NCBI GenBank assembly: GCA_039917855.1
Contig: JBDSIR010000146.1
Span: forward strand, 2,047-66,046
Source: Gemmatimonadales bacterium
GTDB taxonomy: Bacteria > Gemmatimonadota > Gemmatimonadetes > Gemmatimonadales > GWC2-71-9
DNA length: 64,000 nt
Direction: 5' to 3'
Part shown: piece after piece, positions 1-63,200 of the stretch
How the letters are laid out: each line of letters starts with the position of its first letter
Numbering within the stretch: the stretch's first letter is position 1
The notes under the pieces: generated by a model
Databases searched by the model: none
Seen by the model: the letters and a program-made list of their open reading frames with translations, nothing else
Told to the model about the DNA's origin: nothing
Translations under genes and position numbers: made by a program

Positions 1-1064
1 CGGGCGGACCGCCCGTCGCGCCCGCCGCGACCCGCTTCCTGATAGTACGACTCCGGGGTCGGCGGCAGGGTCCAGTGCACCACGAGCCGGACGGTGGGCT
101 TGTCGATCCCCATCCCGAAGGCGCAGGTGGCCACGACGACCTCGACCTCATCCTCCAGGAAGCGGCGGAGCGTCGCCTTGCGATCCTTGGCGGGAAGGCC
201 TGCGTGGAACGGTGCGGCCGCGATGCCCCGGGCCGAGAGTCCGCGCGCGATCCCCTCCGCGAGTCCTCGGGTGGGGACATACACGAGCGTGGTGCGATCC
301 TCGGTCCGGAGGAGCGCGAGGAGGCGATCCCAGCGGTCGCGTTCCGAACGCACCGCGACCACGCCGAACCAGAGGTTGGGACGGTCGAAGGATCCAAGAT
401 GGAGATCCCACCTGCCGCGGGTGGCGCCCCACGCGCCGAGGCGTAGGGTGGCAGCGATGTCGTCCCGCACCTCCGGGGTGGCGCTGCCGGTCAGGGCAAC
501 GACCGGCGGACGGCCGAGCTTCCAGCGGAGGCGACCGAGCCGGCGGTAGGCGGGGCGAAAATCGTGCCCCCACTCGACGAGGCAGTGCGCCTCGTCCACG
601 GCCAAGAGCACTGGTCGGACCTTTGCCGCGGCGAGATCGGTGGACAGGCGCTCGAGACGCTCGGGCGAGACGTACAGAAGCTTCAGCTCTCCGGACTTCA
701 CCCGCTCCATCACCTCGGCCTGTTGGGGCGCCTTGAGCAGAGAGTTCAGGGCCGCGGCCGCTATGCCACGAGCTTGCAGCGCGTTCACCTGGTCCTGCAT
801 CAGGGCCAGCAGAGGCGACACCACCAGCGTGAGTCCATCGAGGACCAGCGCGGGGACCTGGAAGCAAAGGGACTTGCCTCCCCCAGTCGGGAGGATGGCG
901 AGCGTGTCACGTCCCGCGAGGATCGACTGGACCACCCGGCGCTGAGCGGGACGGAAGTCGGGAAACCCCCAGTGGCGGGCGAGAAGGGCGCGCGCCGTGT
1001 CCAGTCGCTCCGCCAGAGGGTGCGAAGTGCGAGGTGCGAAGTCCGGGGAGGTCGGAGCGGCCAT
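1..1064 (-). CDS. recQ: ATP-dependent DNA helicase RecQ, N-terminal part (continues beyond window start)
   Basis: Absent from the ORF track because it has no stop in the window. My minus-strand translation from ATG at 1064 gives MAAPTSPDFAPRTSHPLAERL..FRPAQRRVVQSILAGRDTLAILPTGGGKSLCFQVPAL..LLAVDEAHCLVEWGHDFRPAYR..LTGSATPEV..VVATCAFGMGIDKP..YYQEAGRGGRDG. The + ORF 564-1244 is its antisense shadow. Confidence 0.9.
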   Translation of the reverse strand, partial: MAAPTSPDFAPRTSHPLAERLDTARALLARHWGFPDFRPAQRRVVQSILAGRDTLAILPTGGGKSLCFQVPALVLDGLTLVVSPLLALMQDQVNALQARGIAAAALNSLLKAPQQAEVMERVKSGELKLLYVSPERLERLSTDLAAAKVRPVLLAVDEAHCLVEWGHDFRPAYRRLGRLRWKLGRPPVVALTGSATPEVRDDIAATLRLGAWGATRGRWDLHLGSFDRPNLWFGVVAVRSERDRWDRLLALLRTEDRTTLVYVPTRGLAEGIARGLSARGIAAAPFHAGLPAKDRKATLRRFLEDEVEVVVATCAFGMGIDKPTVRLVVHWTLPPTPESYYQEAGRGGRDGRSA

Positions 1065-1195
1065 GGCCCCAACGTACCGATTTGCGAAGAGCGCTCCGTC
1101 ACCAGAAAAGCGCGGGCCGACCCAAAAATCGCGAGCGGAGCCGACCCCCAGCCAGGGCACCCAGCACTTCGCACCTCGCACTTCGCACTTCGGAC
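1020..1195. repeat. Heptamer-array inverted repeat, GTGCGAA type, spanning the recQ start
   Basis: Left arm gtgcgaagtgcgaggtgcgaagtccggg (1020-1047) lies inside recQ codons. Right arm cacttcgcacctcgcacttcgcacttcggac is at 1165-1195. Confidence 0.9.
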
Positions 1196-1244
1196 CTTGC
1201 CGCGCCCCCCCCGACCGGTAGCTTCCCGAAGGGTCACCCCCACC

Positions 1245-3098
1245 ATGCCCGATACCGTCGCCGTTCGCTGTCCCGAATGCGGGACCTCGCTCCCGAATCT
1301 CGCTCGCGCCTGTCCCCACTGTGGGGCGGCGTCGCCGGTGGCGCGCACAGCGGAGGGGCTGCTCGCGAGCCCGGTGGAGCCCTCGGCGCCCCCCCCGCTC
1401 GATGACCCGGAGCAGATCCCCATCGTCGAGGAGCTCAAGGCGGAGCTCGAGCCACGACTCGTGCTCTTGAAGCCGTTGGCGAAGGGGGGGATGGGGCTGG
1501 TCTATCTGGCGCGCGACCCGGCACTGAAGCGACTGGTGGTGGTCAAGGTGCTGGCCCCGGCCCTGGCGCAGAACGACCGCGCCCGCGCCCGCTTCAAGCG
1601 GGAAGCGGAGTCGGCGGCTGCGGTGGCGCACCCCAACGTGGTGAGCATCTACGAGGTCGGTGAGCTGCCCCGCACCGGGACCTCGTACATGGTCATGCAG
1701 TTCGTCGAGGGTCCCACGCTCACGGAAGCCTTTCCGAACGGCACCGTCGCGGCCGAGGACCAAGCCCGCCGGATCCTGGGGGAAGTGGCGAGCGCGCTGG
1801 CGGCGGCCCACGCCCGCCGCCTGGTCCATCGCGACATCAAGCCGACCAACGTGATCCTCGAGCGGGAAACGGGCCGGGCCATCGTGCTCGACTTCGGCAT
1901 CAGCGCCGTGCTCACGCCGTCGAAGCCGCGGGGGTCGTCAGGTCGCATGGCGCGCCTGACCGGCCCGCAGACCATCGTCGATCACACCATCATGAGCGGC
2001 CTCACCAGTGAAGGTGTGGTGATCGGGACACCGTACTACATGAGCCCCGAGCAGGCCGCGACCGAACCGGTGACCCCGAAGAGCGATGTCTACTCGCTCG
2101 GCGTCCTGGCCTTCGAGCTGGTGACCGGAGGGCTTCCCTTCGTCGAACCGACGCCGACAGCGATGGCGGCGGCGCACCTCAACCAGATGCCGCGCCCGGT
2201 GATGGAGTTGCGGCACGATCTCGATCCCGAGTTCGCCGCCCTCATCGACCGCTGCCTGTCCAAGTTGCCGGCCGATCGTCCCTCGGCGGAGGCGATCGCC
2301 CGCGCCCTGATGCCGGACCAGGGCACCCAGATCGAATGGCCGCCCCCGGGGCTGGACCGCCTCACCGGTCGCGGATGGCGGGCGCTGTTGCGCGCGGGCG
2401 CGGCCGAGGTGCTGGCGTTGCTGTCGCTGGCGCTGGCGCCGTCGCTCCGCACGCTCGAACCGCATCAGGTGTCGGTGATCAGCGCGGCCGCCGCCGTGGT
2501 GGCGTTCGCCTTTCTGATGCTGATGGCGGGTGCGACCGCCTCCGACGCCATGACGGGGATGCTCCGCGGACTCAAGGCCGGCTACCCGCGGGACGTGCTG
2601 CTCGACGCGGCGCTCGACAAACGGCGCGATGCCGGGGATTTGGTGAACGGCGTCGGGGTGTTCGCGCTGGTGCAGGAGGCCCAGCGTCGAGCGATGCTCC
2701 GTGCCCGCCGCGCCGGCGCCGCGACTCTGCTTGCGGGCATCGCGGGGACCGGACTCCTTTCCGGCGCCCTGGGCGCGGGTCTCCTGGGCAACGACCAGAC
2801 CGGGATCGCCATCGCCGCGCTACCGCTCACCCTTGGCCTCCTGGTGCGCACGCTCATCACCGGCGCGGAACGCCGGGTGCGTATCCGAGCCACCCGCGAA
2901 GCGGGAGAGCCGGTCTTCTCCCGCACGCCGCCGATCCGAGCGGAGCTGGTGAAGGGGTGGCTCGAAGATGCCGGACGCAATGCGCCCCGCCCCGGGACTG
3001 CTCAGGACCGGCTCCGACTCGAAGCGCTGACGCTCCCGTGGCTCCTGTTGCTGGGGCCGCTGGTGGCGCTGGTGGGTGCGTTGTTGCTAGAGAGATAG
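1245..3098 (+). CDS. Ser/Thr protein kinase with N-terminal zinc ribbon and C-terminal membrane region
   Basis: ORF 564-3098 trimmed to the in-frame ATG at 1245. It has CPECG..CPHCG, kinase motifs GGMGLVYLA, VVVKVL, HRDIKPTN, DFGIS, YMSPEQ, and a hydrophobic C-terminal half. Confidence 0.9.
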   Translation: MPDTVAVRCPECGTSLPNLARACPHCGAASPVARTAEGLLASPVEPSAPPPLDDPEQIPIVEELKAELEPRLVLLKPLAKGGMGLVYLARDPALKRLVVVKVLAPALAQNDRARARFKREAESAAAVAHPNVVSIYEVGELPRTGTSYMVMQFVEGPTLTEAFPNGTVAAEDQARRILGEVASALAAAHARRLVHRDIKPTNVILERETGRAIVLDFGISAVLTPSKPRGSSGRMARLTGPQTIVDHTIMSGLTSEGVVIGTPYYMSPEQAATEPVTPKSDVYSLGVLAFELVTGGLPFVEPTPTAMAAAHLNQMPRPVMELRHDLDPEFAALIDRCLSKLPADRPSAEAIARALMPDQGTQIEWPPPGLDRLTGRGWRALLRAGAAEVLALLSLALAPSLRTLEPHQVSVISAAAAVVAFAFLMLMAGATASDAMTGMLRGLKAGYPRDVLLDAALDKRRDAGDLVNGVGVFALVQEAQRRAMLRARRAGAATLLAGIAGTGLLSGALGAGLLGNDQTGIAIAALPLTLGLLVRTLITGAERRVRIRATREAGEPVFSRTPPIRAELVKGWLEDAGRNAPRPGTAQDRLRLEALTLPWLLLLGPLVALVGALLLER

Positions 3099-3171
3099 CG
3101 CGAAGTGCGAAGTGCGGGGTGCAAATTGAAAGGCACAGCCTGTAGCCTGTTGGCTGTCGGCTGTCGGCTGG
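3099..3171. repeat. Solo GTGCGAA-type array followed by a GGCTGTC-type hairpin
   Basis: cgcgaagtgcgaagtgcggggtgcaaa (3099-3125) starts right after the kinase stop. It is followed by cacagcctgtagcctgt-tggctgtcggctgtcggctgg (3134-3171). Confidence 0.8.
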
Positions 3172-3217
3172 AGGCTTTGGGGACCGCGGTCAGGCCCCAG
3201 TTGATTTATTGGGGCGG

Positions 3218-4156
3218 CTAGGGGGTGGGGGCCGTCGGCGTCCAGAACGCCTCGAAGTTCTCCCTGCCGTTGCTCAGCACGACGTGGGGGTCGCTGTTAT
3301 CGGCGCCCGCAAGCCAGAGGTCCCCGGTGCCGTAGAGAAGCCGCGTGCCATCAGGGGACAAGGTGGGCGGACGGTTCCCTCGGGCACTTCCGAGGAGGTC
3401 ATACCGGGAGGTCGCAAGTTCCAACCGGCCTATCACCCAGTCGTTCCCGCTGACGTCGAGAAGGAACAATGACTGGCCGTCGGGAGACCAGGAGGGGAGG
3501 TACCCCGTAAAGCCCGCCGTGCTATCCACTACCACCGCCTCGTCGCCGGTGGCGAGCATCTTCGTCACGACCCAGCGGATCGCAGTGTGGTGGACGGGCT
3601 CATAGACCTGACGGATGAACGCGATCCGTTCGCCATCTGGAGACCAGTTTCCCCCCCAAGCACTGACCCCATCGGGGAAGGTCAGGCGTTGCAATCCTGA
3701 CCCGTTCGACCGGATGCGGTAGAGCTGCTTATCAGCCGAAGGCGTGGCCTGATAGTCAAATAGGATCCAGTCATCAGCCAGAGCCCATTTGGGATTCGTC
3801 GCGCGTACGCCAGCTGGGAGTACCACCTTCCTCAACCCCTCCCCCGAGGCATCGACCAGAAAGAGCTCCCACCAATCCTCGAAGACCACCGTCCGTCCGT
3901 CAGGCGAGACGGAGGGGCTCTCAGGCCAGTGCAAGTGACCGAGGAGGGGCCGCGGATCGGTGCCGTCCGTTGCCATGGTCCACAACGCCGCGCTTGCTGT
4001 GTAGTGGGAATCGGGATGGATGCTGGTGAAGATGATCCGATCGAACAATGGTGGTCCGGAATACCCGTCCGGACCCGTGGCTCCGCCCTCTCCACGGCAC
4101 CCGAGGGCGACGAGGATCGCGAGCGACACGGAGGTGAGGCGGATCACCAGTCTCAT
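3218..4156 (-). CDS. TolB-like WD40/PD40 beta-propeller lipoprotein
   Basis: ORF 3218-4219 trimmed to MRLVIRLTSVSLAILVALGC (lipobox-like). It has repeated SPDG motifs (SPDGRTVVF, SPDGERIAF, SPDGQSLFL, SPDGTRLLY). Confidence 0.75.
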   Translation of the reverse strand: MRLVIRLTSVSLAILVALGCRGEGGATGPDGYSGPPLFDRIIFTSIHPDSHYTASAALWTMATDGTDPRPLLGHLHWPESPSVSPDGRTVVFEDWWELFLVDASGEGLRKVVLPAGVRATNPKWALADDWILFDYQATPSADKQLYRIRSNGSGLQRLTFPDGVSAWGGNWSPDGERIAFIRQVYEPVHHTAIRWVVTKMLATGDEAVVVDSTAGFTGYLPSWSPDGQSLFLLDVSGNDWVIGRLELATSRYDLLGSARGNRPPTLSPDGTRLLYGTGDLWLAGADNSDPHVVLSNGRENFEAFWTPTAPTP

Positions 4157-4283
4157 TGGATGCCCAGAACGAGCGAGGGGTACTGCCCAAGGTGACGACC
4201 GGTGTCGCCCCCCTCGCACAACCGACCCTGATCTGAGTGCAAACGGGGGCCGGGGTCAGGCCCCCTGAGGTCGCGTTCGGAGA

Positions 4284-4514
4284 TCATTTCCGGAAGACTT
4301 CCGGCCACCGGCGGACACCGTACCACCGCTTTCCGTCCTTCGGCATCGACCAGACATTCGAGACTTCACGCAGTTCCGGGAGGACTTCCTTGCCCTTGCC
4401 GACCGCCACGCGCACCGCCTGCCGCCACGAGCCCTGGGCGCGCCGCTTGGCCCACTTGTCGGAGCCCGCGGTAGTGATGCCGGCAATAGGGGTATGTCGG
4501 ATGGAGCGGCTCAT
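4284..4514 (-). CDS. Hypothetical basic 76-aa protein, third cistron after the RelE-like toxin
   Basis: Its ATG at 4514 directly abuts the toxin stop (4515-4517). Mostly G/C-ending codons. I recognise no domain. Confidence 0.4.
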   Translation of the reverse strand: MSRSIRHTPIAGITTAGSDKWAKRRAQGSWRQAVRVAVGKGKEVLPELREVSNVWSMPKDGKRWYGVRRWPEVFRK

Positions 4515-4778
4515 TCAGCGATCCCAATAGGCATTCTTGCGGTCAGCGACCCGGACGACTACGACGAGCACCCGTTGGTCGTACACCTGATAGAGGATCC
4601 GAAAATCGCCTGAGCGGATCCGGTACTCGTTGCGGCTCCCCTTAAGCTTCTTCACCCCGTCAGGTCGGGGATCATCGGCCAACGCCTCGATCCGAGCACC
4701 GACCTGTCGTTGGATCTTCCGAGGTAGCTGCTCGAATTCCGATTCTGCATCTTCTGTGAACTCGATCCTGTAGGCCAC
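4515..4778 (-). CDS. RelE/ParE-family type II toxin
   Basis: 87 aa with GTG start: MAYRIEFTEDAESEFEQLPRKIQRQV..LKGSRNEYRIRSGDFRILYQV..VLVVVVRVADRKNAY, a typical RelE/StbE pattern. More A/T-ending codons than its neighbours. Confidence 0.85.
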   Translation of the reverse strand: MAYRIEFTEDAESEFEQLPRKIQRQVGARIEALADDPRPDGVKKLKGSRNEYRIRSGDFRILYQVYDQRVLVVVVRVADRKNAYWDR

Positions 4779-4821
4779 CTTGCTCCTCCCATCAGGTGCA
4801 GGGCGCCCTTCCGATCATCGC

Positions 4822-5076
4822 TCAGAGGTCGAGCCGCTTCTTGATCTGTTCCCAGGGAACGCGCTTGTCGCTCTTGGCGAGGACGCGGCGCATTTCCTCA
4901 AGATCGTAACGGTCTTCCAGAGCCTGAAGAAGGTCAAGGTCGGAGGCCGAGATCATTGCGGCAACACGCTTTCCGTGCCGCTCAAGGACGATCCGGTCTC
5001 CCCGCACCGAAACCTCATTCAGTAGATCGGATAGTCGCTCCCGAGCCGCGCTAGCGGATACACGTGTAACTGACAT
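4822..5076 (-). CDS. Phd/YefM-family antitoxin
   Basis: ORF 4822-5196 trimmed to MSVTRVSASAARERLSDLLNEVSVRGDRIVLERHGKRVAAMIS, preceded by AGGAG. Lies directly upstream of the toxin. Confidence 0.8.
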   Translation of the reverse strand: MSVTRVSASAARERLSDLLNEVSVRGDRIVLERHGKRVAAMISASDLDLLQALEDRYDLEEMRRVLAKSDKRVPWEQIKKRLDL

Positions 5077-5243
5077 CGTGAACTCCTGACCGGCACTGCA
5101 TCGTCGGCACCACCGACGGGCATGCGGTAAGGGCAGATCGACCCCTCTGGCGGCGGATGGGACAGCCAATCCCACCCAGGGGGTACGCGACGCCAATTAA
5201 TGCGCCACTTGATGGCAGGGCCCCACCCCACCATCCGAGACAA

Positions 5244-5272
5244 ATATTAGTACAATTTGTACGATTTGTCAA
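5244..5272 (-). promoter_or_regulatory. Sigma70-like promoter with palindromic operator candidate (TA cassette)
   Basis: AT-rich island in GC-rich DNA. The minus strand reads TTGACA-aatcgtacaaattgtac-TAATAT with 17-nt spacing. The spacer contains the palindrome GTACAAATTGTAC, flanked by tgtacg..cgtaca. Confidence 0.5.
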
Positions 5273-5307
5273 TAACGTACAAAACACCGTCGCCCCGGGG
5301 ACCGAGG

Positions 5308-5532
5308 TCAGGCCCCCTCTTTGTTTTTCGGCTTGGCGAACCGCAGGATCACCCCGATGATGGCAAAAATGAATGCGGCCAGGATCATCCGGTCATCGTG
5401 CTGCAGCATGCCGGTAAGGCCAAGAGTGAGCGCCGCCATGAGGATGCCGAGGCGGAGCATCTGATAGCTGGGCAGCCATCTGCGCCTGGGAACGGCCGGT
5501 TGGATCTCTTGGGGTCGTTGGTCGTTGGTCAT
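5308..5532 (-). CDS. Small membrane protein (hypothetical)
   Basis: Hydrophobic core LRLGILMAALTLGLTGML..ILAAFIFAIIGVILRF. The first 7 codons (MTNDQRP) lie in a repeat arm; alternative ATG at 5460. Confidence 0.4.
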   Translation of the reverse strand: MTNDQRPQEIQPAVPRRRWLPSYQMLRLGILMAALTLGLTGMLQHDDRMILAAFIFAIIGVILRFAKPKNKEGA

Positions 5533-5617
5533 TGGTCGTGAACGTGGGAGGGTCGGCGATCGCCATCACGGATCTACTGGACATGGGCCAACAACCAACG
5601 ACCAGCGACCAATGACC
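5513..5617. repeat. Heptamer-array hairpin, GGTCGTT type
   Basis: Left arm ggtcgttggtcgttggtcattggtcgtg (5513-5540). Right arm ccaacaaccaacgaccagcgaccaatgacc (5588-5617). Confidence 0.9.
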
Positions 5618-6366
5618 TATTTCTTGAGGAAGGCGCTGATCGCGGTCCGGAAATCGGGGGTCGCTCGGCTCATCGCGTTGATGCGGGCGCCGAGCCTGAT
5701 GGCGTCATCGAAGGGGAGCCCGTCCTGGGCGTAGCAGAGCTGCTTCGTCAGGGCGTACGCGGTGAGTGAGACGCCGGTCAGCTGGTTCACGAGGTGCGAA
5801 GTGCGAGGTGCGAAGTCCGGGGTGCGGATGACCTCGGTCACCAACCCAAGGGCCTGGGCCTCAGCCGCTGAGAGGAGGCGGCCGGTGGCGGTGAGCTCAA
5901 GCGCTCGCTTCTCGCCGACCTGGCGCACCAGCATCGCCATCACCATCGCGGGGACGAAGCCGCGCTGGATCTCGGGGTAGCCGAACTGGGCCGTGTCGGC
6001 GGCCAGCACGAGGTCACAGGCGGTGGCGAGGCCGCATCCGCCCGCGAGTGCCCTCCCCTGCACCACTGCGACGACCGGCTTGGGGAGCGCGCGGAGCCCC
6101 TGGAACAGGGCGCCCAACCGCAGCGCGCTCTGCTCGTTGTCGGCGGGATCCTTGTCGGCCGAGGCGAGGAGCTCGTCGAGGTCGGCGCCGGCGCAGAAGT
6201 CCTTCCCCGCCCCCTTGATGACCAGCACCCGAACGGCGGGGTCGTGGTCGGCGCGGGCGACGCCCTCGTGCAGCGCTTCGATGAGCGCCGACGACAGCGC
6301 GTTCCGCTTGTCGGGGCGGTTCAGAGTGAGCGTGAGAATGCCAGCGTTGAGATCGGTTTGAAGCAT
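5617..6366 (-). CDS. Enoyl-CoA hydratase/isomerase (crotonase) family, methylglutaconyl-/isohexenylglutaconyl-CoA hydratase-like
   Basis: ORF trimmed to MLQTDLNAGILTLTLNRPDKRNALS. Has VIKGAGKDFCAGADL and GYPEIQRGFVP. Contains the repeat-encoded PDFAPRTSH segment. Confidence 0.9.
   Translation of the reverse strand: MLQTDLNAGILTLTLNRPDKRNALSSALIEALHEGVARADHDPAVRVLVIKGAGKDFCAGADLDELLASADKDPADNEQSALRLGALFQGLRALPKPVVAVVQGRALAGGCGLATACDLVLAADTAQFGYPEIQRGFVPAMVMAMLVRQVGEKRALELTATGRLLSAAEAQALGLVTEVIRTPDFAPRTSHLVNQLTGVSLTAYALTKQLCYAQDGLPFDDAIRLGARINAMSRATPDFRTAISAFLKK
5794..5822. repeat. Solo GTGCGAA-type array inside the enoyl-CoA hydratase CDS
   Basis: A 29-mer gtgcgaagtgcgaggtgcgaagtccgggg, identical to 1020-1048. 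It encodes PDFAPRTSH on the minus strand. Confidence 0.9.
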
Positions 6367-6385: not shown

Positions 6386-6441
6386 GGGTGAAGGGTCGAG
6401 GGTCGAGGGTGCATCACCCTCCACCCTCCACCCTTAACCCT
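6386..6441. repeat. Heptamer-array hairpin, GAGGGTC type
   Basis: gggtgaagggtcgagggtcgagggtg-ca-tcaccctccaccctccacccttaaccctt. A tight hairpin containing the TAA stop of the upstream gene. Confidence 0.9.
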
Positions 6442-6841
6442 TCGCCTGCTTGGCCTGGGTCGGGAGCGATCTCAAGATCGCCGCCGGGACGGGGATCCGC
6501 ATCCGGAGGAGGGCCGTGGAATAGACCTTTCCCTGCGCATCGGTCTTGAGCGAGATGGTGCCCCCACCATCGAGCGCGCCGTGGAGGAGGAAGTTGAGCG
6601 CCCACAGGTTGGGGAGCTCGAAGCGTTCCACTCCGCTCACCATCCCCTTGAAATGCGCCTTCACGCGCGCCAGCGTGACTTCCTTCCGGATGAGCTCGTA
6701 CCACTCCGGCTGGAGCGCGATCAGCCCGACATTGGCGGTGTCGCCCTTGTCTCCGCTCCGGGCATGGGCAAGCCACCGAAGCTGCACCTGGCGGGCCTGT
6801 GGGCCAGTGGGCCGGTGGGCCTTCTTCCGAGCGCTAGGCAT
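6434..6841 (-). CDS. AtuA C-terminal-domain-like small protein (partner of DUF1446/AtuA)
   Basis: Has [32 protein letters not shown], as in the C-terminal region of long AtuA proteins. The ATG at 6841 overlaps the AtuA stop. The start is uncertain because the track ORF begins at 6862. Confidence 0.65.
6793..6822. repeat. Octamer array GGGCCNGT inside a CDS (AtuA small partner N-terminus)
   Basis: gggcctgtgggccagtgggccggtgggcc. It encodes AHRPTGPQA on the minus strand. Confidence 0.8.
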
Positions 6842-55588: not shown

Positions 55589-57509
55589 ACGGCATCAACG
55601 CCCTGCTCTTCTCCTCACCCGCCACCTTCGCCACGAACTCCGCCACCGGCATCACCGTCTGCTTGGTCCCCGCCCCGCGCACCCTGACCGCCACCGCACC
55701 CGAGTCGGCCTCGCGCTGTCCCACCACCGCCATGTACGGCACTTTCAGGACTTCGCCATCGCGGATCCGGTAGTTGAGGGTCTCGTTCGAGTCATCGACC
55801 GTGACCCGGAGCCCCGCATCGCGCAGTTGCTTGGCCACCGCATGCGCCGCCGCGGCCTGCGCGTCGCTGATCGGGAGCACCCGTACCTGCTCGGGCGCGA
55901 GCCAGACCGGGAACGCCCCGGCGAAGTGCTCGATCAGGATCGCGATGAAGCGCTCGAACGAGCCGCTCACCGCCCGATGGATGACGACCGGCCGGTGGGG
56001 ATGGTTGTCCTCCCCCACATACGTCAGGGCGAACCGCTCCGGCGCGTTGAAGTCGAGCTGGATGGTGCCGAGTTGCCAGGCTCGCCCGATCGCGTCGTAG
56101 ACGTCGAAGTCGATCTTGGGGCCGTAGAACGCCCCGTCTCCCGGCTTGAGTTCGTATGGCAGCCCGGTCGCCTCGAGCGCAGCCTTCAAGCTCGCCTCGG
56201 CACGATCCCAGAGCGCGTCATCACCGATACGGACCTCCGGCCGGGTGGCGAACTTGAGCTTCGCCTCCAGCCCAAAGGTCTTGTAGTACGCCAGGATGAA
56301 GTCGGCGATCCGCTTCACCTCGGCGGGGATCTGCGACTCCATCAGGTAGATATGACAGTCGTCCTGGGAGAACTGCCGCACGCGCGTGAGGCCCGAGAGC
56401 GCCCCGCTCACCTCGTTCCGATGCAGCACATCGTAGGTGCTGTAGCGGGTCGGGAGCTCGCGGTAGCTGTGCCGCCGCGACGCGAAAAAGAGGTGGTGCG
56501 ACGGGCAGTTCATCGGCTTCAGGGACATGTCGTGCTCCCCGGTCTCCTTGTCGAGGACGAGGAACATGTTCTCCTGGTACTTCCCCCAATGCCCTGACTG
56601 CTCCCAGAGCGCTTTGTGGTACAGCAGCGGGGTCCGGACCTCCTGATACCCTTCGCGCTCCAGCTCGCGCAGATAGGCGTTGATGGTGTTGTAGATCGCC
56701 GTGCCGCGCGCGGTCCAGAAGGCGGCCCCCGGCGCCACCGGGAAGAAGTGGAAGAGATCGAGTTCCTTCCCCACCCGGCGATGGTCCCTCTTCTTCGACT
56801 CCTCGAGGCGGTGGGTATACGCCTCCAGGTCCTCCTTCTTGAACCACGCCGTACCATAGATGCGCTGCAGCATCTGCCGCCGAGAATCCCCCCGCCAGTA
56901 CGCCCCCGCGATGCTCAGCAGCTTGAAATGCTTCAGCCGCGACGTGCTCGGCACATGCGGTCCCCGGCAGAGGTCGACGAACGGGCCGTCGGTGTAGACA
57001 GTGATGGTCTCGTCGGCGCCGAGGTCGTCGATCCGCTCGAGCTTGAGGGGATCGTCCTTGAAACGCTTCTTTGCCTCCGCCCGATCCACCACCTCGCGCG
57101 TGAACGGGTAGTCCGCCTTGGCCACCTCGACCATTTTCGCCTCGATCTGTGCGAGATCCTCAGGCGTGAAGGGGCGATCGAGCTGGAAGTCGTAGTAGAA
57201 CCCGTCCTCGATCGGCGGCCCGAATCCGATGCCGGCATTGGGGAAGAGCTCGCGCACGGCCGTGGCCAGGATATGGGCGGCGGAGTGGCGGAGCACCTCG
57301 AGAGCGTCGGGGTCGCGGTCGGTCAGCAGCGATACGGTGGCGCCATCCTCGAGCTCGCGGCCGAGGTCGCGGATCTGGCCGTTGACGCGGGCGGCGAGCG
57401 CTGCCTTGGCGAGGCCGGGCCCGATGGCCTGGGCCAGGTCGCGGGCGGTGCTGCCAGCGGGAAGTTCGCGGACACTCCCGTCGGGGAGGGTGATGCGGAG
57501 CTGGCTCAC
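55587..57509 (-). CDS. thrS: Threonyl-tRNA synthetase
   Basis: 640 aa, GTG start. Has a TGS domain (ITLPDGSVRE), HSAAHILA, FRDE-type class II motifs, and a C-terminal anticodon-binding domain. Confidence 0.95.
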   Translation of the reverse strand: MSQLRITLPDGSVRELPAGSTARDLAQAIGPGLAKAALAARVNGQIRDLGRELEDGATVSLLTDRDPDALEVLRHSAAHILATAVRELFPNAGIGFGPPIEDGFYYDFQLDRPFTPEDLAQIEAKMVEVAKADYPFTREVVDRAEAKKRFKDDPLKLERIDDLGADETITVYTDGPFVDLCRGPHVPSTSRLKHFKLLSIAGAYWRGDSRRQMLQRIYGTAWFKKEDLEAYTHRLEESKKRDHRRVGKELDLFHFFPVAPGAAFWTARGTAIYNTINAYLRELEREGYQEVRTPLLYHKALWEQSGHWGKYQENMFLVLDKETGEHDMSLKPMNCPSHHLFFASRRHSYRELPTRYSTYDVLHRNEVSGALSGLTRVRQFSQDDCHIYLMESQIPAEVKRIADFILAYYKTFGLEAKLKFATRPEVRIGDDALWDRAEASLKAALEATGLPYELKPGDGAFYGPKIDFDVYDAIGRAWQLGTIQLDFNAPERFALTYVGEDNHPHRPVVIHRAVSGSFERFIAILIEHFAGAFPVWLAPEQVRVLPISDAQAAAAHAVAKQLRDAGLRVTVDDSNETLNYRIRDGEVLKVPYMAVVGQREADSGAVAVRVRGAGTKQTVMPVAEFVAKVAGEEKSRALMP

Positions 57510-58177: not shown

Positions 58178-60909
58178 GCGACGAACTGAGCCCGACCTAC
58201 TCCCCCGCCGGCCTCGAAGTCGGCATCTACCGGCAGTGGGAGAAGGCCGGGGTCTTCGCGCCCTCGGGTCATGGGTCGAGGGTCATGGGTCGTGGGGCTT
58301 TGGAGGGTCGCAACGCCTCCCACGACTCACGACCCACGACCCAAGACCCGTTCGTGACCATGATGCCCCCGCCGAACGTGACGGCGAGCCTCCACATGGG
58401 GCACGGGCTCAACAATACTCTCCAGGACGTCCTCACCCGCTGGGCCCGGATGCGGGGGCGCCCGGCGCTCTGGCTCCCCGGCACCGACCACGCCGGCATC
58501 GCCACGCAGAACGTGGTCGAGCGGCTGGTGGCCAAGGAGGGCCAGACCCGCTTCGATCTTGGGCGCGGGCCCTTCCTCGAGCGGATGCACGCCTACGTCG
58601 ACGTGACCAAGGAGACCATCCTCGGCCAGCTTCGGAGCATCGGCTCGAGCGCCGACTGGAGCCGCACGTACTACACCTTCGACGAGCACTACTCCGAGGC
58701 CGTGCGCGAGGTGTTCGTGCGGCTGTACGAGAAGGGCCTCATCTACCGCGGCAAGTACATCATCAACTGGTGCCCCCGCTGCCTCACCGCCCTTTCTAAT
58801 GAAGAGGCGGAAAAGGAGGAGCGGGACGGGAAGATCTGGCACCTGCGCTATCCCCTGGCCGATGGCTCAGGGTCGCTGGTCGTGGCCACCACTCGGCCGG
58901 AGACGATGCTGGGCGACACCGGCGTGGCGGTGCATCCTGAGGACGAGCGCTACCAGGCGCTCATCGGGAAGATGCTGGCGCTGCCGCTCACCGACCGGCG
59001 GATCCCCATCGTCGGCGACGAGGCGGTCGATCCGGAGTTCGGGAGCGGCGCGGTGAAGGTCACGCCGGCGCATGACCAGACCGACTTCGAGATCGGCAAG
59101 CGGCACGACCTGGCCCAGATCGACGTGATGACCCCGGAGGCGCGGATGGCGGAGACCGTGCCGCTGCGCTTCCAGGGCCTGGACCGGTTCGACGCGCGAA
59201 AGAAGGTCGTGGCGGAGTTCGAGGCGCTGGGACTCCTGGTCAAGATCGATGACCACCGCCACGCCGTGGGCCACTGTTACCGCTGCGGCACCGTGGTGGA
59301 ACCGCGCCTGTCGGATCAGTGGTTCGTGAAGATGGCGCCCCTCGCCAAGCCGGCGCTCAAGGCGTATGCCGACAAGAAGGTGAAGTTCGTCCCGGAACGC
59401 TGGGGCGACATCTATACCCAGTGGCTGGAGGGGATCCGCGACTGGTGCATCAGCCGCCAGCTCTGGTGGGGGCATCGCATCCCGGTCTGGTACTGCGATG
59501 CGTGTGGTTCGAAGCACGCCAGCCGCACCGACCTGGTCACCTGCCCCAAGTGCCGCGGCCTGTTGCGTCAGGACGAGGACGTGCTCGACACCTGGTTCTC
59601 CAGCTGGCTCGTGCCGATGGCCTCCCTCGGCTGGCCCGAGGAGACCGAGGACCTCAAGCGGTTCTATCCCGGCACGGTGCTCATCACCGCCCCCGAGATC
59701 CTGTTCTTCTGGGTGGCGCGGATGATCATGGCGGGGCTCGAGTTCCGCGGGAAGGTGCCGTTCCACACCGTGTATCTGCACGGCACCGTGCGCGACACCC
59801 AGCATCGCAAGATGTCGAAGTCTTTGGGCAACGGGATCGATCCGCTCGACGTGATCGAGAAGTACGGCGCCGACGCGCTGCGCTACACGGTGATCTCGGG
59901 GATGGCGGTCGGGACCGACCTGATCCTCGATCCGAAGGATCTGGAGATCTCGTTCGCGCCGGGGCGGAACTTCGCCAACAAGCTCTGGAATGCCGCGCGC
60001 TTCCTGTTGAGCAACCTGCACGGCGCTCCCCGTCCCTTGGCCGGCGCGTATCGAGAAGTGATCCGGAGGGAGGAACTCACCCTCGCCGACCGGTGGATCA
60101 TCGCCCGGTGCGATGCCGCGGTGCGCGAGTCGGCCGACGCGCTGGAGAAGTTCCGCCTCAACGATGCGGCGAGTGCGGCCTATCACTTCATCTGGAGCGA
60201 CTTCGCCGACTGGTACGTCGAGGCGATCAAGCCCCGGCTCTACGGCGACGTGCCCGGGGGTAGCATCGCGCGCGCGGTGGCCTACCGGGTCTTCGACACC
60301 GCCCTCCGGCTGTTGCACCCGGTGATGCCCTTCATCACCGAGGCGATCTGGCAGAAGCTCCCCGGGCGCACCGAGGGGGAGCTTCTCGCGCGCGCGCGCT
60401 GGCCCGAAGCCGATCAGCGTGCCAGTGACGACGGCGCCCTCGCAGAATTCGCCCTGGTGCAGGAGGTCGTGACGGCGCTCCGGCAGATCCGCGCCGAGAA
60501 TGGCGTGGAGCCCGGGAAACAGATCGACGCGACCGTCGTCGCCGCCACGCCGGCGATGCGCTCCGCGCTCACCCTCGAGGATGCCACGGTGCGCAGGCTC
60601 GCCAAAGTGGCGAAGCTTACCGTCGGGCCTGCTCCGACCGGGGCCGCCGCGAGCGCGGTCCTCTCCGACGGCTCAACGGTGATCGTTCCCCTCGGCGGGA
60701 TGGTCGACTTGGCCAAGGAATGCGCCAAGCTCGCCGCCGAACGCGACCGGCTGGCGGGGATGGTCGCGAACCAGGAGAAGAAGCTCAGCAATGAGCAGTT
60801 CGTGGCGCGCGCCCCGGCCGCCGTGATCGAAGGGGAACGGAAGAAGCTCGCGGAGTGGACGGAACATGTGAGCAAGTTGAATGATCGAAGGCGGGCGCTC
60901 GGGTGCTGA
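58174..60909 (+). CDS. valS: Valyl-tRNA synthetase
   Basis: ORF trimmed to MSDELSPTYSP. Has PPPNVTASLHMGH, KMSKSLGN, and a C-terminal coiled coil. Contains an 84-bp repeat insertion. Confidence 0.95.
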   Translation: MSDELSPTYSPAGLEVGIYRQWEKAGVFAPSGHGSRVMGRGALEGRNASHDSRPTTQDPFVTMMPPPNVTASLHMGHGLNNTLQDVLTRWARMRGRPALWLPGTDHAGIATQNVVERLVAKEGQTRFDLGRGPFLERMHAYVDVTKETILGQLRSIGSSADWSRTYYTFDEHYSEAVREVFVRLYEKGLIYRGKYIINWCPRCLTALSNEEAEKEERDGKIWHLRYPLADGSGSLVVATTRPETMLGDTGVAVHPEDERYQALIGKMLALPLTDRRIPIVGDEAVDPEFGSGAVKVTPAHDQTDFEIGKRHDLAQIDVMTPEARMAETVPLRFQGLDRFDARKKVVAEFEALGLLVKIDDHRHAVGHCYRCGTVVEPRLSDQWFVKMAPLAKPALKAYADKKVKFVPERWGDIYTQWLEGIRDWCISRQLWWGHRIPVWYCDACGSKHASRTDLVTCPKCRGLLRQDEDVLDTWFSSWLVPMASLGWPEETEDLKRFYPGTVLITAPEILFFWVARMIMAGLEFRGKVPFHTVYLHGTVRDTQHRKMSKSLGNGIDPLDVIEKYGADALRYTVISGMAVGTDLILDPKDLEISFAPGRNFANKLWNAARFLLSNLHGAPRPLAGAYREVIRREELTLADRWIIARCDAAVRESADALEKFRLNDAASAAYHFIWSDFADWYVEAIKPRLYGDVPGGSIARAVAYRVFDTALRLLHPVMPFITEAIWQKLPGRTEGELLARARWPEADQRASDDGALAEFALVQEVVTALRQIRAENGVEPGKQIDATVVAATPAMRSALTLEDATVRRLAKVAKLTVGPAPTGAAASAVLSDGSTVIVPLGGMVDLAKECAKLAAERDRLAGMVANQEKKLSNEQFVARAPAAVIEGERKKLAEWTEHVSKLNDRRRALGC
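58266..58349. repeat. Heptamer-array hairpin, GGGTCRT type, in frame inside valS
   Basis: Left arm gggtcatgggtcgagggtcatgggtcgtgggg, 21-nt spacer, right arm cccacgactcacgacccacgacccaagaccc. Total 84 bp, which is 28 codons. Confidence 0.9.
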
Positions 60910-60910
60910 G

Positions 60911-61110
60911 CCCTCTCCCCCCGACCCCCTCTCACTGTCGGGAGAGGGGGAGCGCCACGGAACAGCTCCCCTCCCCCGACAAGGGGAACACCACGGTTCA
61001 ACTCTCCTCCCCCGACAGGGGGAACACCACGGTTCAACTCCCCTCCCCCGACAGGGGGAACACCACGAAACAGCTTCCCTCCCCCGACAGGGGGAGGGGC
61101 CGGGGGAGGG
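60911..61110. repeat. Tandem array, 36-bp period, about 4.5 units, of the CCCCTC..GAGGGG hairpin family
   Basis: Units at 60966-61001, 61002-61037 and 61038-61073 (ctcccctcccccgacagggggaacaccacggttcaa), flanked by partial and divergent units. Confidence 0.9.
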
Positions 61111-61130
61111 GGCTGAGCGTCCGGGCGTCC

Positions 61131-62417
61131 GTGCTCGGTGGCCTCGCCGTGCTCGCCGCCTGCGCCAAGTTCGGTCCTCCGCCGGGCGGCCCTCCCGACG
61201 CGATCGCGCCCGTGCTCGTCGCGACCCGCCCCGACTCCCTCGGCACCTTTCCCGATTTCCGTGGGGACGCGGAATTCATCTTCGATGAGACCATCTCGGA
61301 GGGAGGCTCGCCGAACTTCGGCTACGGGACCGGTGACCTCGAACGGATGGTGGTCCTCTCGCCCAGCGACGAGGTACCGCGGGTGAAATGGGAGCGGAGC
61401 CGCATCGCCGTGCATCCGCGCGAAGGGTGGCGGCCCAACACCGTCTACCGGATCGAGCTCCTCCCGGGGATCACCGACCTGCGGCGCAATCGCAGCCGCA
61501 GCGGCCAGATCATCACCTTCTCCACCGGTGCGCCCCTCCCGACCGATTCGCTGAGCGGGATCGTGATCGACTGGACCACCCGTCAGCCGGCCCGGCTCGC
61601 CGCGATCGAGGCGCTCCTCCTCCCCGATTCGCTGGTCTATCGCACGCAGAGCGACTCAACGGGCCGCTTCATCCTCGCACCGATCCCGCACGGGGCGTAT
61701 CTGCTTCGCGGCTTCCTTGACCAGAATCGGGATCGGCGGATCAACGGCAAGGAGAACTGGGACTCCGTCGGCGTGGCGCCGGCCCCGGCGGCTACGGCAG
61801 TGCTCTGGCTCGCGCCCCACGACACCCTCGCGCCGCGCGTGATGCAGGTGACCTGGCGCGACTCCCTGACCGTCGAAATCCAGCTCACCCAACCGATCGA
61901 CCCGTATCAGGTGCTCGACACATCGAACATCGTCGTGCTGCAACTCCCAGACTCCGTCCCGATGGTGGCGCGCACCTTCCGGACCAAACCGCTCGACGAC
62001 TCCCTCGTGGCCCGCGCCAGAGTGGAGGCCGACAGCCTTCGTGCCGACTCGCTCAAGCGGGCGCGGCCCGATACGGGCCAGCGGCCGGGACTACCCGGTC
62101 GCATCGTGGCTCCCCCGGCCCCTGCGCCGACCCCGATCCTGCGTCGGCGTGCGGGGGTACCGATCGACAGCACCGTCATCAAGCTGGCGCAGACCCGTCC
62201 CGCTTTGGGCGACCGGTTGGTCCTCCGGTTGGCTGCCCCGATGCCGCCTGAATCGAGGTATGTGCTCGAGGTGCGCGGGATCCGGAATGTGAATGGGGTG
62301 GCGGGGAACGCGGCCGGCGGATTCGCGGCCCCCAGGCAGCCACCGCCGCCGCCGCCGAAGGCCGCTGCCGACAGCACCCGTCAGGACAGTACCGCCGTCC
62401 CGCCGAGGCGACCCTGA
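61131..62417 (+). CDS. Lipoprotein with SbsA-type Ig-like domain
   Basis: Track ORF 60903-62417. Lipobox LAVLAAC at about 61140. Has PPDAIAPVLVATRPD and WRPNTVYRIELLPGITDL. The start is uncertain: the GTG at 61131 gives a short signal peptide, while the upstream part is the tandem repeat. Confidence 0.7.
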   Translation: MLGGLAVLAACAKFGPPPGGPPDAIAPVLVATRPDSLGTFPDFRGDAEFIFDETISEGGSPNFGYGTGDLERMVVLSPSDEVPRVKWERSRIAVHPREGWRPNTVYRIELLPGITDLRRNRSRSGQIITFSTGAPLPTDSLSGIVIDWTTRQPARLAAIEALLLPDSLVYRTQSDSTGRFILAPIPHGAYLLRGFLDQNRDRRINGKENWDSVGVAPAPAATAVLWLAPHDTLAPRVMQVTWRDSLTVEIQLTQPIDPYQVLDTSNIVVLQLPDSVPMVARTFRTKPLDDSLVARARVEADSLRADSLKRARPDTGQRPGLPGRIVAPPAPAPTPILRRRAGVPIDSTVIKLAQTRPALGDRLVLRLAAPMPPESRYVLEVRGIRNVNGVAGNAAGGFAAPRQPPPPPPKAAADSTRQDSTAVPPRRP

Positions 62418-62992
62418 TGGCCCAGCGAGCGGGGGTGCCGCCACTGCCGGGGGCGCGTCCAGCCGCGTTCTTGGACCGCGACGGGACCATCATCGAGGAT
62501 CCCGGCTACCTCGACCACCCCGAACAGGTCCAGCTCATCCCCGATGCAGCCTCCGCCATCCGTCGGCTCAATGAAGCGGGGTGGGTCGTCGTCGTCATCA
62601 CCAACCAGAGCGGCATCGCCCGCGGCTATTACACCGAGGCCGACTACGAGACGGTGCGCGCGCACGTCGACGAACTCCTGTCGCGCCAAGGGGCGCGCGT
62701 CGACGCGCACTATCACTGCCCCCATCATCCCAGCGTTTCGGCCTGCGAGTGCCGCAAGCCCGGGCTCAAGCACTTCCTCCACGCCATCGGCCGGTTCGGG
62801 ATCGATCCCGCGAAGAGCTGGTGCGTCGGCGACAAGGTGGGCGACGTCACTCCAGCGATCCGACTCGGCGCCCACGGCCTCCTGGTCCGCACCGGCGAAG
62901 GGGTCGCCAATCGGGTCGAGGCCGAACTGGCGGGGTTCGGCTCGGTGCCCGACCTCGCCGCCGCGGTGAGTCGGATGCTGGGGGGCGGGTAG
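62417..62992 (+). CDS. gmhB: D-glycero-beta-D-manno-heptose-1,7-bisphosphate 7-phosphatase (HAD-IIIA)
   Basis: 191 aa: FLDRDGTII, VVVITNQSGIARG, CPHHP..C.CRKP, VGDK. The stop TAG lies in the first unit of an octamer array. Confidence 0.85.
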   Translation: MAQRAGVPPLPGARPAAFLDRDGTIIEDPGYLDHPEQVQLIPDAASAIRRLNEAGWVVVVITNQSGIARGYYTEADYETVRAHVDELLSRQGARVDAHYHCPHHPSVSACECRKPGLKHFLHAIGRFGIDPAKSWCVGDKVGDVTPAIRLGAHGLLVRTGEGVANRVEAELAGFGSVPDLAAAVSRMLGGG

Positions 62993-63200
62993 GCGGGTAG
63001 GCGGGTAGGCGGGGGGAATGTCGATTCGGGATCAGGCCATAAGAGGTGTCATCCCGAGCAGAGCGAGGGATCTAGCTCGCTTCGACCGGGGCCTGGACGC
63101 ACCCTCAACGCTTCGCCGGGTAGATCCCTCGCTCTGCTCGGGATGACATTGGTCGCCCCCCGCTGGATGCCCACTCTACCCGCCTGACCGCCTTCCCCCC
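62984..63200. repeat. GCGGGTAG-type octamer array with a partial inverted copy, enclosing a 100-bp TIR element
   Basis: ggcgggtaggcgggtaggcgggtaggcgggggg at 62984-63015. The inverted ctacccgcctgaccgccttcccccc is at 63176-63200. Confidence 0.7.
63048..63147. mobile_element. 100-bp MITE-like element, GTCATCCCGAGC family
   Basis: Ends gtcatcccgagcagagcgagggatct (63048-63073) and tagatccctcgctctgctcgggatgac (63121-63147). Same length and ends as 45058-45157, but a different interior. Confidence 0.8.

Follow-up and report, generated by a model that had tools for sequence, protein, structure and literature searches.

In Xanthomonas, the heptamer GGGAATC forms 70 to 75 convergent inverted pairs per genome, typically of four units and approximately 90% intergenic, which lie near or overlap the end of the upstream open reading frame (ORF), occupy positions conserved between species, and are capable of forming stem-loops (Rehm et al. 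2015, PMC4692102). The same report remarks that detailed literature on heptamer repeats was unavailable (PMC4692102). As far as the summary of Mrazek 2007 in PMC4679880 extends, heptamers are the most frequent class of long simple-sequence repeat (SSR) in bacteria, slippage has been proposed for such repeats, and the length of 7 nucleotides (nt) has been tied to polymerase contact. Here, we analyzed hairpins armed with tandem arrays of 7- or 8-nt units in a 64-kb stretch of the metagenome-assembled genome of a soil bacterium of the phylum Gemmatimonadota (contig JBDSIR010000146.1; G+C content, 65 to 71%), the whole of which is referred to as the window. Like GGGAATC, these are tandem heptamers of approximately four units arranged as convergent, G-rich-first pairs in the intergenic regions of a high-GC genome. 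Unlike GGGAATC, which is a single unit with G-tracts and has been studied as G-quadruplexes, the window contains at least 14 unit types, 8-mers included, most of which lack G-tracts; runs of three Gs occur only in GGGTCRT, GAGGGTC, GCGGGTAG, and GGGCCNGT. Concerted unit change on two arms, hairpins within coding sequences (CDSs), nested growth, and strain-level replacement were seen here and were not found in the portions of the Xanthomonas account available. The original prediction, made from the letters of the window, was not aware of a description of such a class, but precedents exist in the convergent Xanthomonas pairs (PMC4692102) and the common bacterial heptamers (PMC4679880, as far as its summary goes). 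We conclude that the Xanthomonas repeat is the nearest precedent, that heptamer SSRs and short tandemly repeated repetitive (STRR) sequences are the parent class, and that the window holds a multi-sequence version of known repeat types, not an entirely novel sort of element.

Cyanobacterial STRR heptamers, reportedly described by Mazel in 1990, and other long SSRs share with the window elements a period of 7, a mainly intergenic location, several units per genome, and a variable copy number. One unit found in a relative of the window, GGTCATT, is a rotation of the STRR2 unit TTGGTCA. STRR sequences and long SSRs have been described as direct arrays, with inverted pairs reported to be rare in Nostoc, whereas hairpin pairing with a fixed polarity is the rule in the window. 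Rickettsia palindromic elements are hairpin-forming sequence families of approximately 100 to 150 bp that occur in frame in protein genes and are not known to have tandem-repeat arms. The window elements resemble them in that one hairpin is in frame, in a linker encoded by an essential gene, that of valyl-tRNA synthetase (ValRS), and differ from them in that the CDS case is exceptional and the unit differs between genomes. The TAACTGA repeats of Beggiatoaceae, cyanobacteria, and Bacteroidetes are intergenic sets of 2 to 6 copies located a few nucleotides from start codons, and this single AT-rich unit, found across phyla, makes up 170 sets, of which 169 are direct and 1 is indirect (PMC4679880). 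Intergenic heptamers and cross-phylum recurrence are common to TAACTGA and the window elements; unlike the latter, TAACTGA is direct only, bar that one case. Finally, repetitive extragenic palindromic (REP) sequences may contribute stop codons and are in some cases located within ORFs (PMC3733652). Like REP, BIME, and REPIN elements, which RAYT transposases mobilize, the window elements are intergenic, operon-internal hairpins that are single or paired and that form several families per genome. Unlike REPs, which are fixed palindromes of 20 to 40 nt with a GTAG or CGTC tag and hundreds of near-identical copies, their arms are arrays of variable unit number. No fixed 20- to 40-nt palindrome or shared terminal tag was found among the window elements, and as variable-number arrays of differing units they fall outside the definition of a REP or REPIN.

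A literature search of incomplete coverage returned nothing specific for Gemmatimonadota, which is absence of evidence only. We did not find an account of many coexisting units that include 8-mers, of concerted two-arm turnover, or of nested outward growth, nor of a polarity rule that extends to solo arrays, of an arrayed hairpin in ValRS, or of an on/off distribution in Gemmatimonadales. Rfam at the gathering threshold recognized only tRNA-Met in the window and matched no element. CRISPR was set aside, as a spacer array is absent, and iterons were also considered and set aside.

Arrays were detected with Tandem Repeats Finder and with a separate custom scan, and 20 dinucleotide-preserving shuffles served as controls. 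The window contained 16 period-7 arrays compared to a shuffle mean of 0.1 (maximum, 1) and 6 period-8 arrays compared to a shuffle mean of 0.2. Other periods in the range of 4 to 16 were at background, with approximately 0 or 1 array each, except for period 14 (3 arrays), which is accounted for by a two-unit super-period of period-7 arrays; an ABAB super-period of 14 or 16 nt was reported by Tandem Repeats Finder in many arrays. Approximately 16 loci consisted of an array, a spacer of about 2 to 125 nt, and the reverse-complement array, with predicted folding energies of −40 to −140 kcal/mol, and the 8 hairpins compared to 200 shuffles per locus gave z scores of −3.0 to −11.7. The GTGACCR hairpin at 50357 to 50443 (z = −7.2), the first unit of which contains the TGA of a 3-hydroxybutyryl-CoA dehydrogenase gene, was matched at every base in L010, a same-species contig (approximately 96% protein identity in 3HCDH) assembled independently from a different sample, and an assembly artifact was therefore dismissed. 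Moreover, equivalent architecture was seen across NCBI, JGI, and ENA assemblies.

Metagenome assemblies do often break at these elements, which is what an artifact might produce. Arms in assembled sequence had 2 to 5 units, and contigs of three relatives terminated in arrays of approximately 7.5 to 14 units (L001, 10795 to 10891; L004, 7356 to 7431; L006, 14499 to 14552), indicating that longer arrays exist and break assemblies. Most contigs carrying homologues were just 1 to 3 kb long, and arrays probably fragment Gemmatimonadota assemblies and hide true array lengths. With the excess over shuffles and the independent assemblies set against the broken contigs, chance or artifact can be rejected as the source of the pattern. 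We conclude that the pattern is real, common to related genomes, and rapidly changing.

The two scans agreed with the original prediction on nearly all of the period-7 and period-8 arrays, and most of its locus list stood. The exceptions were 30064 to 30202, which has a period of 9 to 10; 34367 to 34469, which is not tandem; 7057 to 7088, which is weak, lies within a CDS, and was not seen in orthologues; and 49187 to 49220, which is an array of the 8-mer AGGCGGTA rather than of GGTRAGC. In addition, five arrays are solo, with the partner arm absent (3099 to 3125, 6793 to 6822, 49187 to 49220, 54161 to 54196, and 63786 to 63819), and the elements at 31205 to 31287 and 63786 to 63819 had been missed.

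The window genes are mainly housekeeping genes arranged as long codirectional runs, the starts of which were called with a crude method based on third-position G+C content (GC3) and compared to database gene calls at syntenic loci. Arrays were present in approximately 19 of 25 nondivergent gaps of at least 50 bp and in 0 of 3 divergent gaps, which bears out the proposed tie to gene boundaries, and the remaining nondivergent gaps held mostly other hairpin repeats. Start and stop codons frequently lay within arms or adjoined them, and paired elements spanned from −18 to +35 nt of the upstream stop to 0 to 33 nt of the downstream start. The stop-containing units GTGACC, GGTRAGC, GCGGGTAG, and GAGTCTA supply or adjoin the stop and were found only at gene ends, and the stop-free units GTGCGAA and GGGTCRT were found within CDSs. 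The occasional in-CDS copies that had been predicted were recovered at 58266 to 58349 in ValRS and at 5788 to 5826 in an enoyl-CoA hydratase gene, the latter being a GTGCGAR array with a unit free of stops in every frame. GGGCCNGT was not counted as a CDS unit, as its solo array at 6793 to 6822 is intergenic. GGGCCNGT enters coding sequence only in the hairpin at 34857 to 35038, the 3′ arm of which lies over signal-peptide codons of a lumazine-binding-domain gene and the loop of which holds the start codon.

Approximately 0.7 Mb of sequence was inspected in total, comprising the window and contigs of relatives. Syntenic Gemmatimonadales contigs matched the window at 1 to 22 kb (L001 to L005), at approximately 22 to 44 kb (L134 to L136), and at approximately 40 to 61 kb (L006 to L011, L132, and L133). 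Identity to the window was approximately 80 to 89% in the proteins compared for L006 and for the genome represented by L009 and L134, and protein identity was 75% for L133 and 74% for L132.

Orthologous sites suggested that arms grow outward in place around older hairpins or spacer. At 1020 to 1195, GTGCGAA arms of three or four units enclose a loop of approximately 124 nt 5′ of a Ser/Thr kinase gene (likely ATG at 1245), and L002 and array-free L003 both retain the spacer core that lies inside the loop. In L002, degenerate GTGCGA units at the equivalent site are themselves enclosed by newer GGGTGCT arms. The hairpin at 30064 to 30202 has four CACGGAG cores per arm around a conserved inner hairpin (z = −11.7), and L134 retains the inner hairpin and the loop with different outer arms. 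Similarly, the GAGTCTA-armed double hairpin at 33614 to 33770 (a 60-bp unit in 2.2 copies), which lies between convergent genes and contacts both stops, shares with L135 its inner hairpin GAGGGGTGC..GCACCCCTC and its innermost GGAGTTT units, and the outer units in the window have drifted to AGAGTCT. Because conserved inner hairpins and ancestral spacer sit in the loops, outward growth in situ appears to account for the position of the arms.

Other sites persisted among relatives and changed in unit. The GTGACCR elements at 26486 to 26573 (4 + 4 units with an inner GGGCC/GGCCC stem and the AspRS TGA in the 5′ arm; z = −8.6), at 39988 to 40114 (between tRNA-Met and DivIC, the TGA stop of which is in the arm), and at 50357 each had a counterpart at the equivalent site of the L009/L134 genome, and the last was also present in L006. 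Loops were homologous among the orthologous copies of 50357 and of 39988, the latter with 2 units in L134 compared to 4 in the window, and for 26486 the unit and the site were shared. At the AspRS-PhoH junction, GTGACC/GGTCAC in the window and L134 corresponded to GTGAGC/GCTCAC (GTGAGCR) in L135 and L136, with both arms changed. The acyltransferase-enolase junction is filled in the window by a GGCGGATN 8-mer hairpin, the 3′ arm of which adjoins the enolase ATG (41676 to 41795; z = −3.0), and across genomes with conserved flanks the unit was GGCGG+ATN, GGCGG+GTA/TCA, or GGCGG+TCN (L007 and L008 carry GGCGGGTA/GGCGGTCA, and L009 carries GGCGGTCN). A GAGGGTC (GGAGGGT)-armed hairpin that includes the upstream stop and has a 3-nt loop (6386 to 6442; z = −7.4) corresponded to GGAGTTT on both arms in L001 and L002 and to no array in L003 to L005. 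Finally, the GGTRAGC hairpin between a 64-amino-acid (aa) gene and YjeF (46745 to 46859; inner junction GTGAGCGGGCC; z = −9.4) corresponded to GGTRAGC in L007, GGGGTRA in L008, and GTGCGAA in L009. Whole-array unit changes, which the original prediction had proposed to look for, were seen on both arms at several sites.

Change was also evident within the species and within a gene. The array 5′ of RpiB has 2 full units in the window and 4 in L010, and the Rce1-3HCDH junction is wholly different in these two contigs: in the window, it holds GGCTCCT/AGCCAGT-armed hairpins in two tandem 141-bp copies (51309 to 51568), and in L010, it holds (GATGCG)n followed by a (GACCAAY)5 array within which Rce1 ends and 3HCDH begins. 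The GGGTCRT-armed hairpin at 58266 to 58349 (plus strand; z = −8.2) is in frame in the ValRS CDS and encodes a 28-aa linker before PPPNVT..HMGH, the 28 residues lying between AGVFAP and PFVTMMPPPNVT..HMGH. The same linker has 22 residues in L006 (other arrays), 16 in L009 (a solo array), and 11 in L008, where a plain 8-bp hairpin, GGTCGCCC/GGGCGACC, has GGTCG in common with the unit of the (GGGTCRT)4 arms of the window.

Older sequence in the loops, copy-number change between strains, and the 14- and 16-nt super-periods are consistent with the slippage-type generation in situ that had been suggested. On balance, and with roughly even confidence, we read the elements as lineage-specific, SSR-armed hairpins produced by slippage-driven growth on preexisting intergenic hairpins, filtered by selection and with some spread between loci. 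The seeds would be small GC-rich hairpins, normally located just past stops in intergenic spacers and once in a protein linker. Replication slippage would duplicate the outermost 7 to 8 bp of each arm in tandem, the resulting 7- to 8-nt loops should evade mismatch repair, and once two copies were present, each arm would gain, lose, and homogenize units independently, as short SSRs do. The stem would thereby lengthen away from the older hairpin and spacer that it encloses, and the arms would stay complementary in their consensus units, either by selection for pairing or by preferential survival of paired versions. Selection would restrict elements to the space from stop to start or to tolerant in-frame linkers and would fix the polarity described below. 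A limited, genome-specific set of units could arise if the seed hairpins were small dispersed families and/or if similar arrays exchanged sequence. Slippage as the motor is inferred, as are evasion of mismatch repair, the origin of the polarity, and any sequence exchange among loci, whereas the enrichment, the architecture, its conservation and turnover, the in situ placement of the arms, the independent homogenization of each arm, the polarity, and the lack of terminator, transposon, and RNA-family signatures were observed directly.

Several points weigh against growth by slippage as so described. Units recur at nonorthologous loci above chance, and three GTGACCR elements look like whole-element copying. 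GTGACCR is present in metagenome contigs of 36 to 72% GC, a spread that seeds arising locally and at random would not readily produce, and the replacement of a whole junction between contigs that are approximately 96% identical in protein is a more sudden change than slippage in single steps would give. The growth of two arms in step is a further difficulty, and neither Shine-Dalgarno sequences nor leader composition accounts for the polarity. Last, the window gene starts are rough, as they come from the GC3-based caller, though syntenic database calls agree.

The two arms were complementary in their consensus units, with approximately 1 mismatch per unit, such that a stem is often a 6-bp helix plus one mismatch, recurring periodically. 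Variants specific to one arm, for example, arm-specific seventh bases, were homogenized within that arm, and noncomplementary array pairs also occur. Quasipalindrome template-switch mutagenesis is a replication-based process that acts at imperfect inverted repeats and predicts perfect mirror arms. Here, unlike that prediction, arm-specific variants persist, and a mirror order of unit variants between arms fit no better than a direct order, the two being indistinguishable. These results lend no support to the template switching that had been offered alongside slippage or to arm-to-arm template copying.

The units were also less independent than had been claimed, as the original prediction treated them as unrelated between loci. 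Matching 7-mer unit pairs with at most 1 mismatch numbered 10 within the window compared to 2.8 expected (P = 0.0045), and there were 2 exact 8-mer unit matches compared to 0.014 expected. Units that recurred at nonorthologous sites in several genomes were GTGCGAA, GTGACCR/GTGAGCR, GGCGG+NNN, GGTCRTT, GGCGCTNG, GGAGTTT, and GCAGAAGN, and sister units differed by 1 to 2 nt (GTGACC/GTGAGC and the GGCGG+NNN series). The three GTGACCR elements align end to end, with 4 + 4 units, an inner GGGCC stem, a loop that begins with TGWTG, and a GTAACC variant, and the exact junction GTGACCGGGCC, taken as the seed hairpin, had no window copies outside these three elements. A metagenome scan for (GTGACCN)3 returned at least 120 stretches in contigs of 36 to 72% GC, and approximately 14% of the loci were paired among the first 80 examined. 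Among the matches listed, period 7 was dominant in these contigs (148 arrays compared to at most 16 for any other period), and some GTGACCA arrays graded into AGTTATC (that is, TAACTGA) or TGACCAA-type units. We conclude that the GTGACCR heptamer is part of a widespread heptamer-repeat pool and that, judging from the unit sequences, different loci and genomes draw on a common and limited repertoire.

Shared units within and between genomes could instead point to nonautonomous mobile hairpin families, REP/REPIN-like or MITE-like, that are defined by their unit and mobilized by a trans-acting enzyme, with the tandem arms being secondary. We hold this explanation, the main rival to growth by slippage, to be possible but doubtful. 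The whole-element likeness of the three GTGACCR copies, to which the GTGAGCGGGCC element is a sister, is consistent with it, as is the finding that one site holds different families in different genomes or is replaced wholesale between near-identical strains. In L133, arrayed hairpins at matching junctions have their own units (GGATTGAN at two sites, GGGAGCG, and GGGGAAGG), and the stop codons and in-ORF copies of REPs (PMC3733652) offer a parallel. Moreover, the window, L006, L009, and L010 carry an element at the 3HCDH-GluDH junction, where L007 and L008 have a 30- to 39-bp plain spacer. A comparison of the filled and empty states of that junction, however, revealed neither a target-site duplication nor a clean insertion boundary, but rather the replacement of 6 to 13 nt of spacer. 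The arms enclose ancestral spacer or inner hairpins rather than bringing a loop of their own, families have no common terminal tag and at most 3 to 4 copies in 64 kb, and solo arrays and noncomplementary pairs exist. The GTGACCR copies are all old, being orthologous in L134/L009, and no recent transposition was seen; nor were transposase or RAYT domains found in the approximately 45 window proteins scanned or among the Pfam marks of syntenic loci. A classical MITE was rejected, as there was no target-site duplication and the arms at 1020 to 1195 straddle ancestral sequence, and accumulated transposon footprints or target-site duplications were set aside, as they would yield direct rather than inverted flanking repeats. 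The original view that this is not one transposing sequence is upheld.

Paired elements had a fixed polarity. Across 194 kb, 19 of 21 pairs had a G-rich 5′ arm facing a C-rich 3′ arm, with 2 neutral and 0 reversed, a count that includes orthologous, nonindependent elements and corresponds to approximately a dozen independent sites. The single reversed case outside that set was the spaced CGAACCCA hairpin at 34367 to 34469, which has two copies per arm 17 nt apart and, read on the sense strand, a 5′ arm rich in C. Relatives carry either a full hairpin at this site (L136) or no more than a solo GAACCCC ×2 (L134 and L135). Because a hairpin reads alike on both strands, G-first polarity is equivalent to G-rich after a stop and C-rich before a start, and the solo arrays followed the same rule. 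After a stop, the G-rich GTGCGAA array at 3099 to 3125 (plus strand; orthologue in L002 at 15678 to 15696) begins 1 nt past the end of the kinase gene. Before starts, four arrays are C-rich. The 8-mer GGGCCNGT at 6793 to 6822 (minus strand, C-rich on sense) separates the stop of AtuA from the beginning of an AtuA-ferredoxin gene, the Pfam domain of which starts directly after the array, and other 8-mers occupy the site in relatives (GGCGCTNG in L002 and AGGCGGCG in L003). The AGGCGGTA array at 49187 to 49220 (minus strand, C-rich on sense) is 8 nt 5′ of the RpiB start, the GCGGGTAG ×4.5 array at 54161 to 54196 (minus strand, C-rich on sense; orthologue in L006) is 34 nt 5′ of the thiolase start, and the C-rich GACCGCCY 8-mer array at 63786 to 63819 (plus strand) ends 1 nt short of the next start codon. 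Several window starts directly adjoin C-rich arrays. Shine-Dalgarno-like motifs preceded 11 of 54 predicted starts (20%) compared to an 18% background and were thus not enriched, and Shine-Dalgarno or leader composition was dropped as a cause of the polarity, as array-free gaps show little G depletion.

Strict gene-relative polarity that extends to solo arrays, and elements that bridge stop to start in the absence of Shine-Dalgarno enrichment, could reflect selected mRNA structures that couple the stop with the start, mask the start, or protect or process operon transcripts, with the repeat arms allowing stem strength to be tuned and to withstand slippage. Complementarity that survives unit change, conservation of several elements across approximately 75 to 89% protein identity, and plain hairpins at matching sites in array-free L132 would also fit such a role, and whole-array compensatory unit changes were seen between orthologues. 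Nonetheless, we consider a selected mRNA role unlikely as the explanation. Among 34 elements, no preference for sense-strand folding was found, the antisense strand folding slightly better in 23, with a mean of 2.2 kcal/mol (P = 0.057), and there was no sense-strand excess of G-U pairs (131 compared to 100, in favor of the antisense strand), such that a claim for selected sense RNA was abandoned. GTAACC variants cause A-C mismatches in sense RNA, and no compensatory pairs were found within the GTGACCR family. The copy in the ValRS CDS must be melted by ribosomes, and elements are dispensable at orthologous sites in L007, L008, and L132. A scan of 46 to 64 kb for intrinsic terminators gave 8 sites compared to 5.7 expected, none of them at an arrayed hairpin, and T-rich tails were absent from the element sequences read directly. 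Growth by slippage, mobile families, and a role in mRNA are compatible readings and are not mutually exclusive.

The distribution of arrays was lineage specific. L133 is array rich and L132, at a similar divergence, has no arrayed hairpins at the junctions examined, only short plain GC hairpins just after stops. This on/off contrast, the sharp preference for period, and the constant polarity might be explained by a dedicated lineage-specific enzyme that adds 7- to 8-nt units at hairpin bases, such as a structure-specific nuclease or polymerase, a reverse transcriptase acting together with an Avd-like protein, or an activity resembling telomerase, and a PF05635 (Avd/23S-IVS-type) gene lies between inverted arrays in L002. 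Such an enzyme is improbable, as no candidate gene is present in the window, many units would demand many templates, and the heptamer excess is widespread in unrelated bacteria, which favors a general property of replication (PMC4679880). A speculative reading, which we rate as rather unlikely, is that hairpins in certain bacterial lineages are self-extending: a stable stem would stall replication and so prompt the duplication of 7 to 8 nt where each of its arms begins, a positive feedback that depends on a lineage-specific replication or repair quirk or enzyme and that would continually remodel operon junctions and protein linkers in a genome lacking Shine-Dalgarno sites. The hairpins might then be co-opted for translational coupling, and G-first polarity might reflect avoidance of Rho loading.

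The L133 "on" and L132 "off" states make these genomes a tractable case for the coevolution of short tandem repeats and hairpins, and the question of why heptamers accumulate in some bacteria could be approached by gene-content comparison and strain series. In practical terms, Gemmatimonadota metagenome assemblies are probably fragmented by the elements, gene calling is distorted by starts and stops within arrays and by the 28-aa ValRS insert, and the arrays offer hypervariable strain markers. The bridging of stop to start with strict polarity may matter for operon expression without use of Shine-Dalgarno sequences.

Four further elements complete the set. A period-7 array of AGCCTGT/GGCTGTC at 3134 to 3176 is self-folding. 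The GGTCGTT-armed hairpin at 5513 to 5617 (z = −4.9), the 5′ arm of which adjoins the enoyl-CoA hydratase stop (sense being the minus strand), has an orthologue in L002 at 15373 to 15463 with the matching unit GGTCATT. The GCAGAAGN-armed hairpin at 31205 to 31287 has a period of 8 to 9 and lies between convergent genes, and the GCAGAAGN family occupies a different site in L136. The GCGGGTAG hairpin at 62984 to 63200 holds the upstream TAG in its first units, has a degenerate 3′ arm and an orthologue in L006 at 111 to 139, and contains in its loop a nested 30-bp inverted repeat from another family.

That family, GGTCATCCCGAGCAGAGCGAGGGATCT...AGATCCCTCGCTCnGCTCGGGATGAC, is a second inverted-repeat type and is found in the window at 45050 to 45165 and in the loop of 62984 to 63200 (approximately 63045 to 63160) and in L010 at approximately 2555 to 2625. 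L010 has an additional 60-bp inverted repeat precisely between two CGGG direct repeats, and this L010-only copy reflects either slippage deletion across the hairpin or an insertion. A third intergenic hairpin type, CCCCCTCTCCGC...GCGGAGAGGGGG, is present at 28890 to 28945 and 37935 to 38223, and a similar one is in the GluDH-RpiB gap of L008. A MITE-like element of 250 to 330 bp is present in two copies (14951 to 15277 and 18097 to 18343) with terminal inverted repeats of approximately 45 bp (CTGTCATCCTGAGGsCCCTTCAGGsGCCGAAGGATCTCCGG), and the site orthologous to the first copy has a heptamer-armed hairpin, CCTAGCG/CGCTAGG, in L001 and L002 instead. At the site orthologous to the second copy, L002 encodes a 141-aa four-helix-bundle protein of the 23S-rRNA-intervening-sequence/Avd type (2558 to 2983, minus strand; PF05635, E = 1.7e-37) that is flanked by inverted 14-mer arrays, GGGGCCTGGGGAGA...CCTCCCCAGGCCC (approximately 2585 to 2615 and 3085 to 3112).

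Other features adjoin arrays or conserved genes. A segment of approximately 2.3 kb and lower G+C content (3122 to 5407), flanked by the arrays at 3099 to 3176 and 5513 to 5617, is missing from L002 and L003 and encodes a PD40/TolB-like beta-propeller (3218 to 4219, minus strand) and a ParE toxin/Phd-YefM antitoxin pair (4515 to 4778 and 4822 to 5196, minus strand). Direct repeats of approximately 130 bp at 54198 to 54330 and 55466 to 55600 share approximately 97% identity in their first 100 nt; each includes a hairpin and a T-tailed terminator-like stem, and the two flank a 1.14-kb insert between ThrRS and thiolase in which no Pfam-recognizable ORF was found. This spot is an insertion hot spot, as relatives carry different genes there, namely, a 138-aa gene in L008 and a 448-aa gene with a faint DUF4379 match in L009. 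A tRNA-Met (CAT) gene at 39896 to 39970 (minus strand) is directly downstream of the 39988 to 40114 hairpin and is followed by two plain hairpins conserved in L134. A gene at 13797 to 14951 (minus strand), in a run of methylmalonyl-CoA pathway genes, has bacterial archaeo-eukaryotic release-factor-like domains (baeRF family 10/family 2). Finally, a 36-bp tandem repeat, AGGGGGAACACCACGGAACAACTCCCCTCCCCCGAC, is present in 4.2 copies at 60945 to 61095, near the 5′ end of a Big_5-domain gene (60903 to 62417), and as 36 is divisible by three, it may correspond to a protein repeat of 12 residues.

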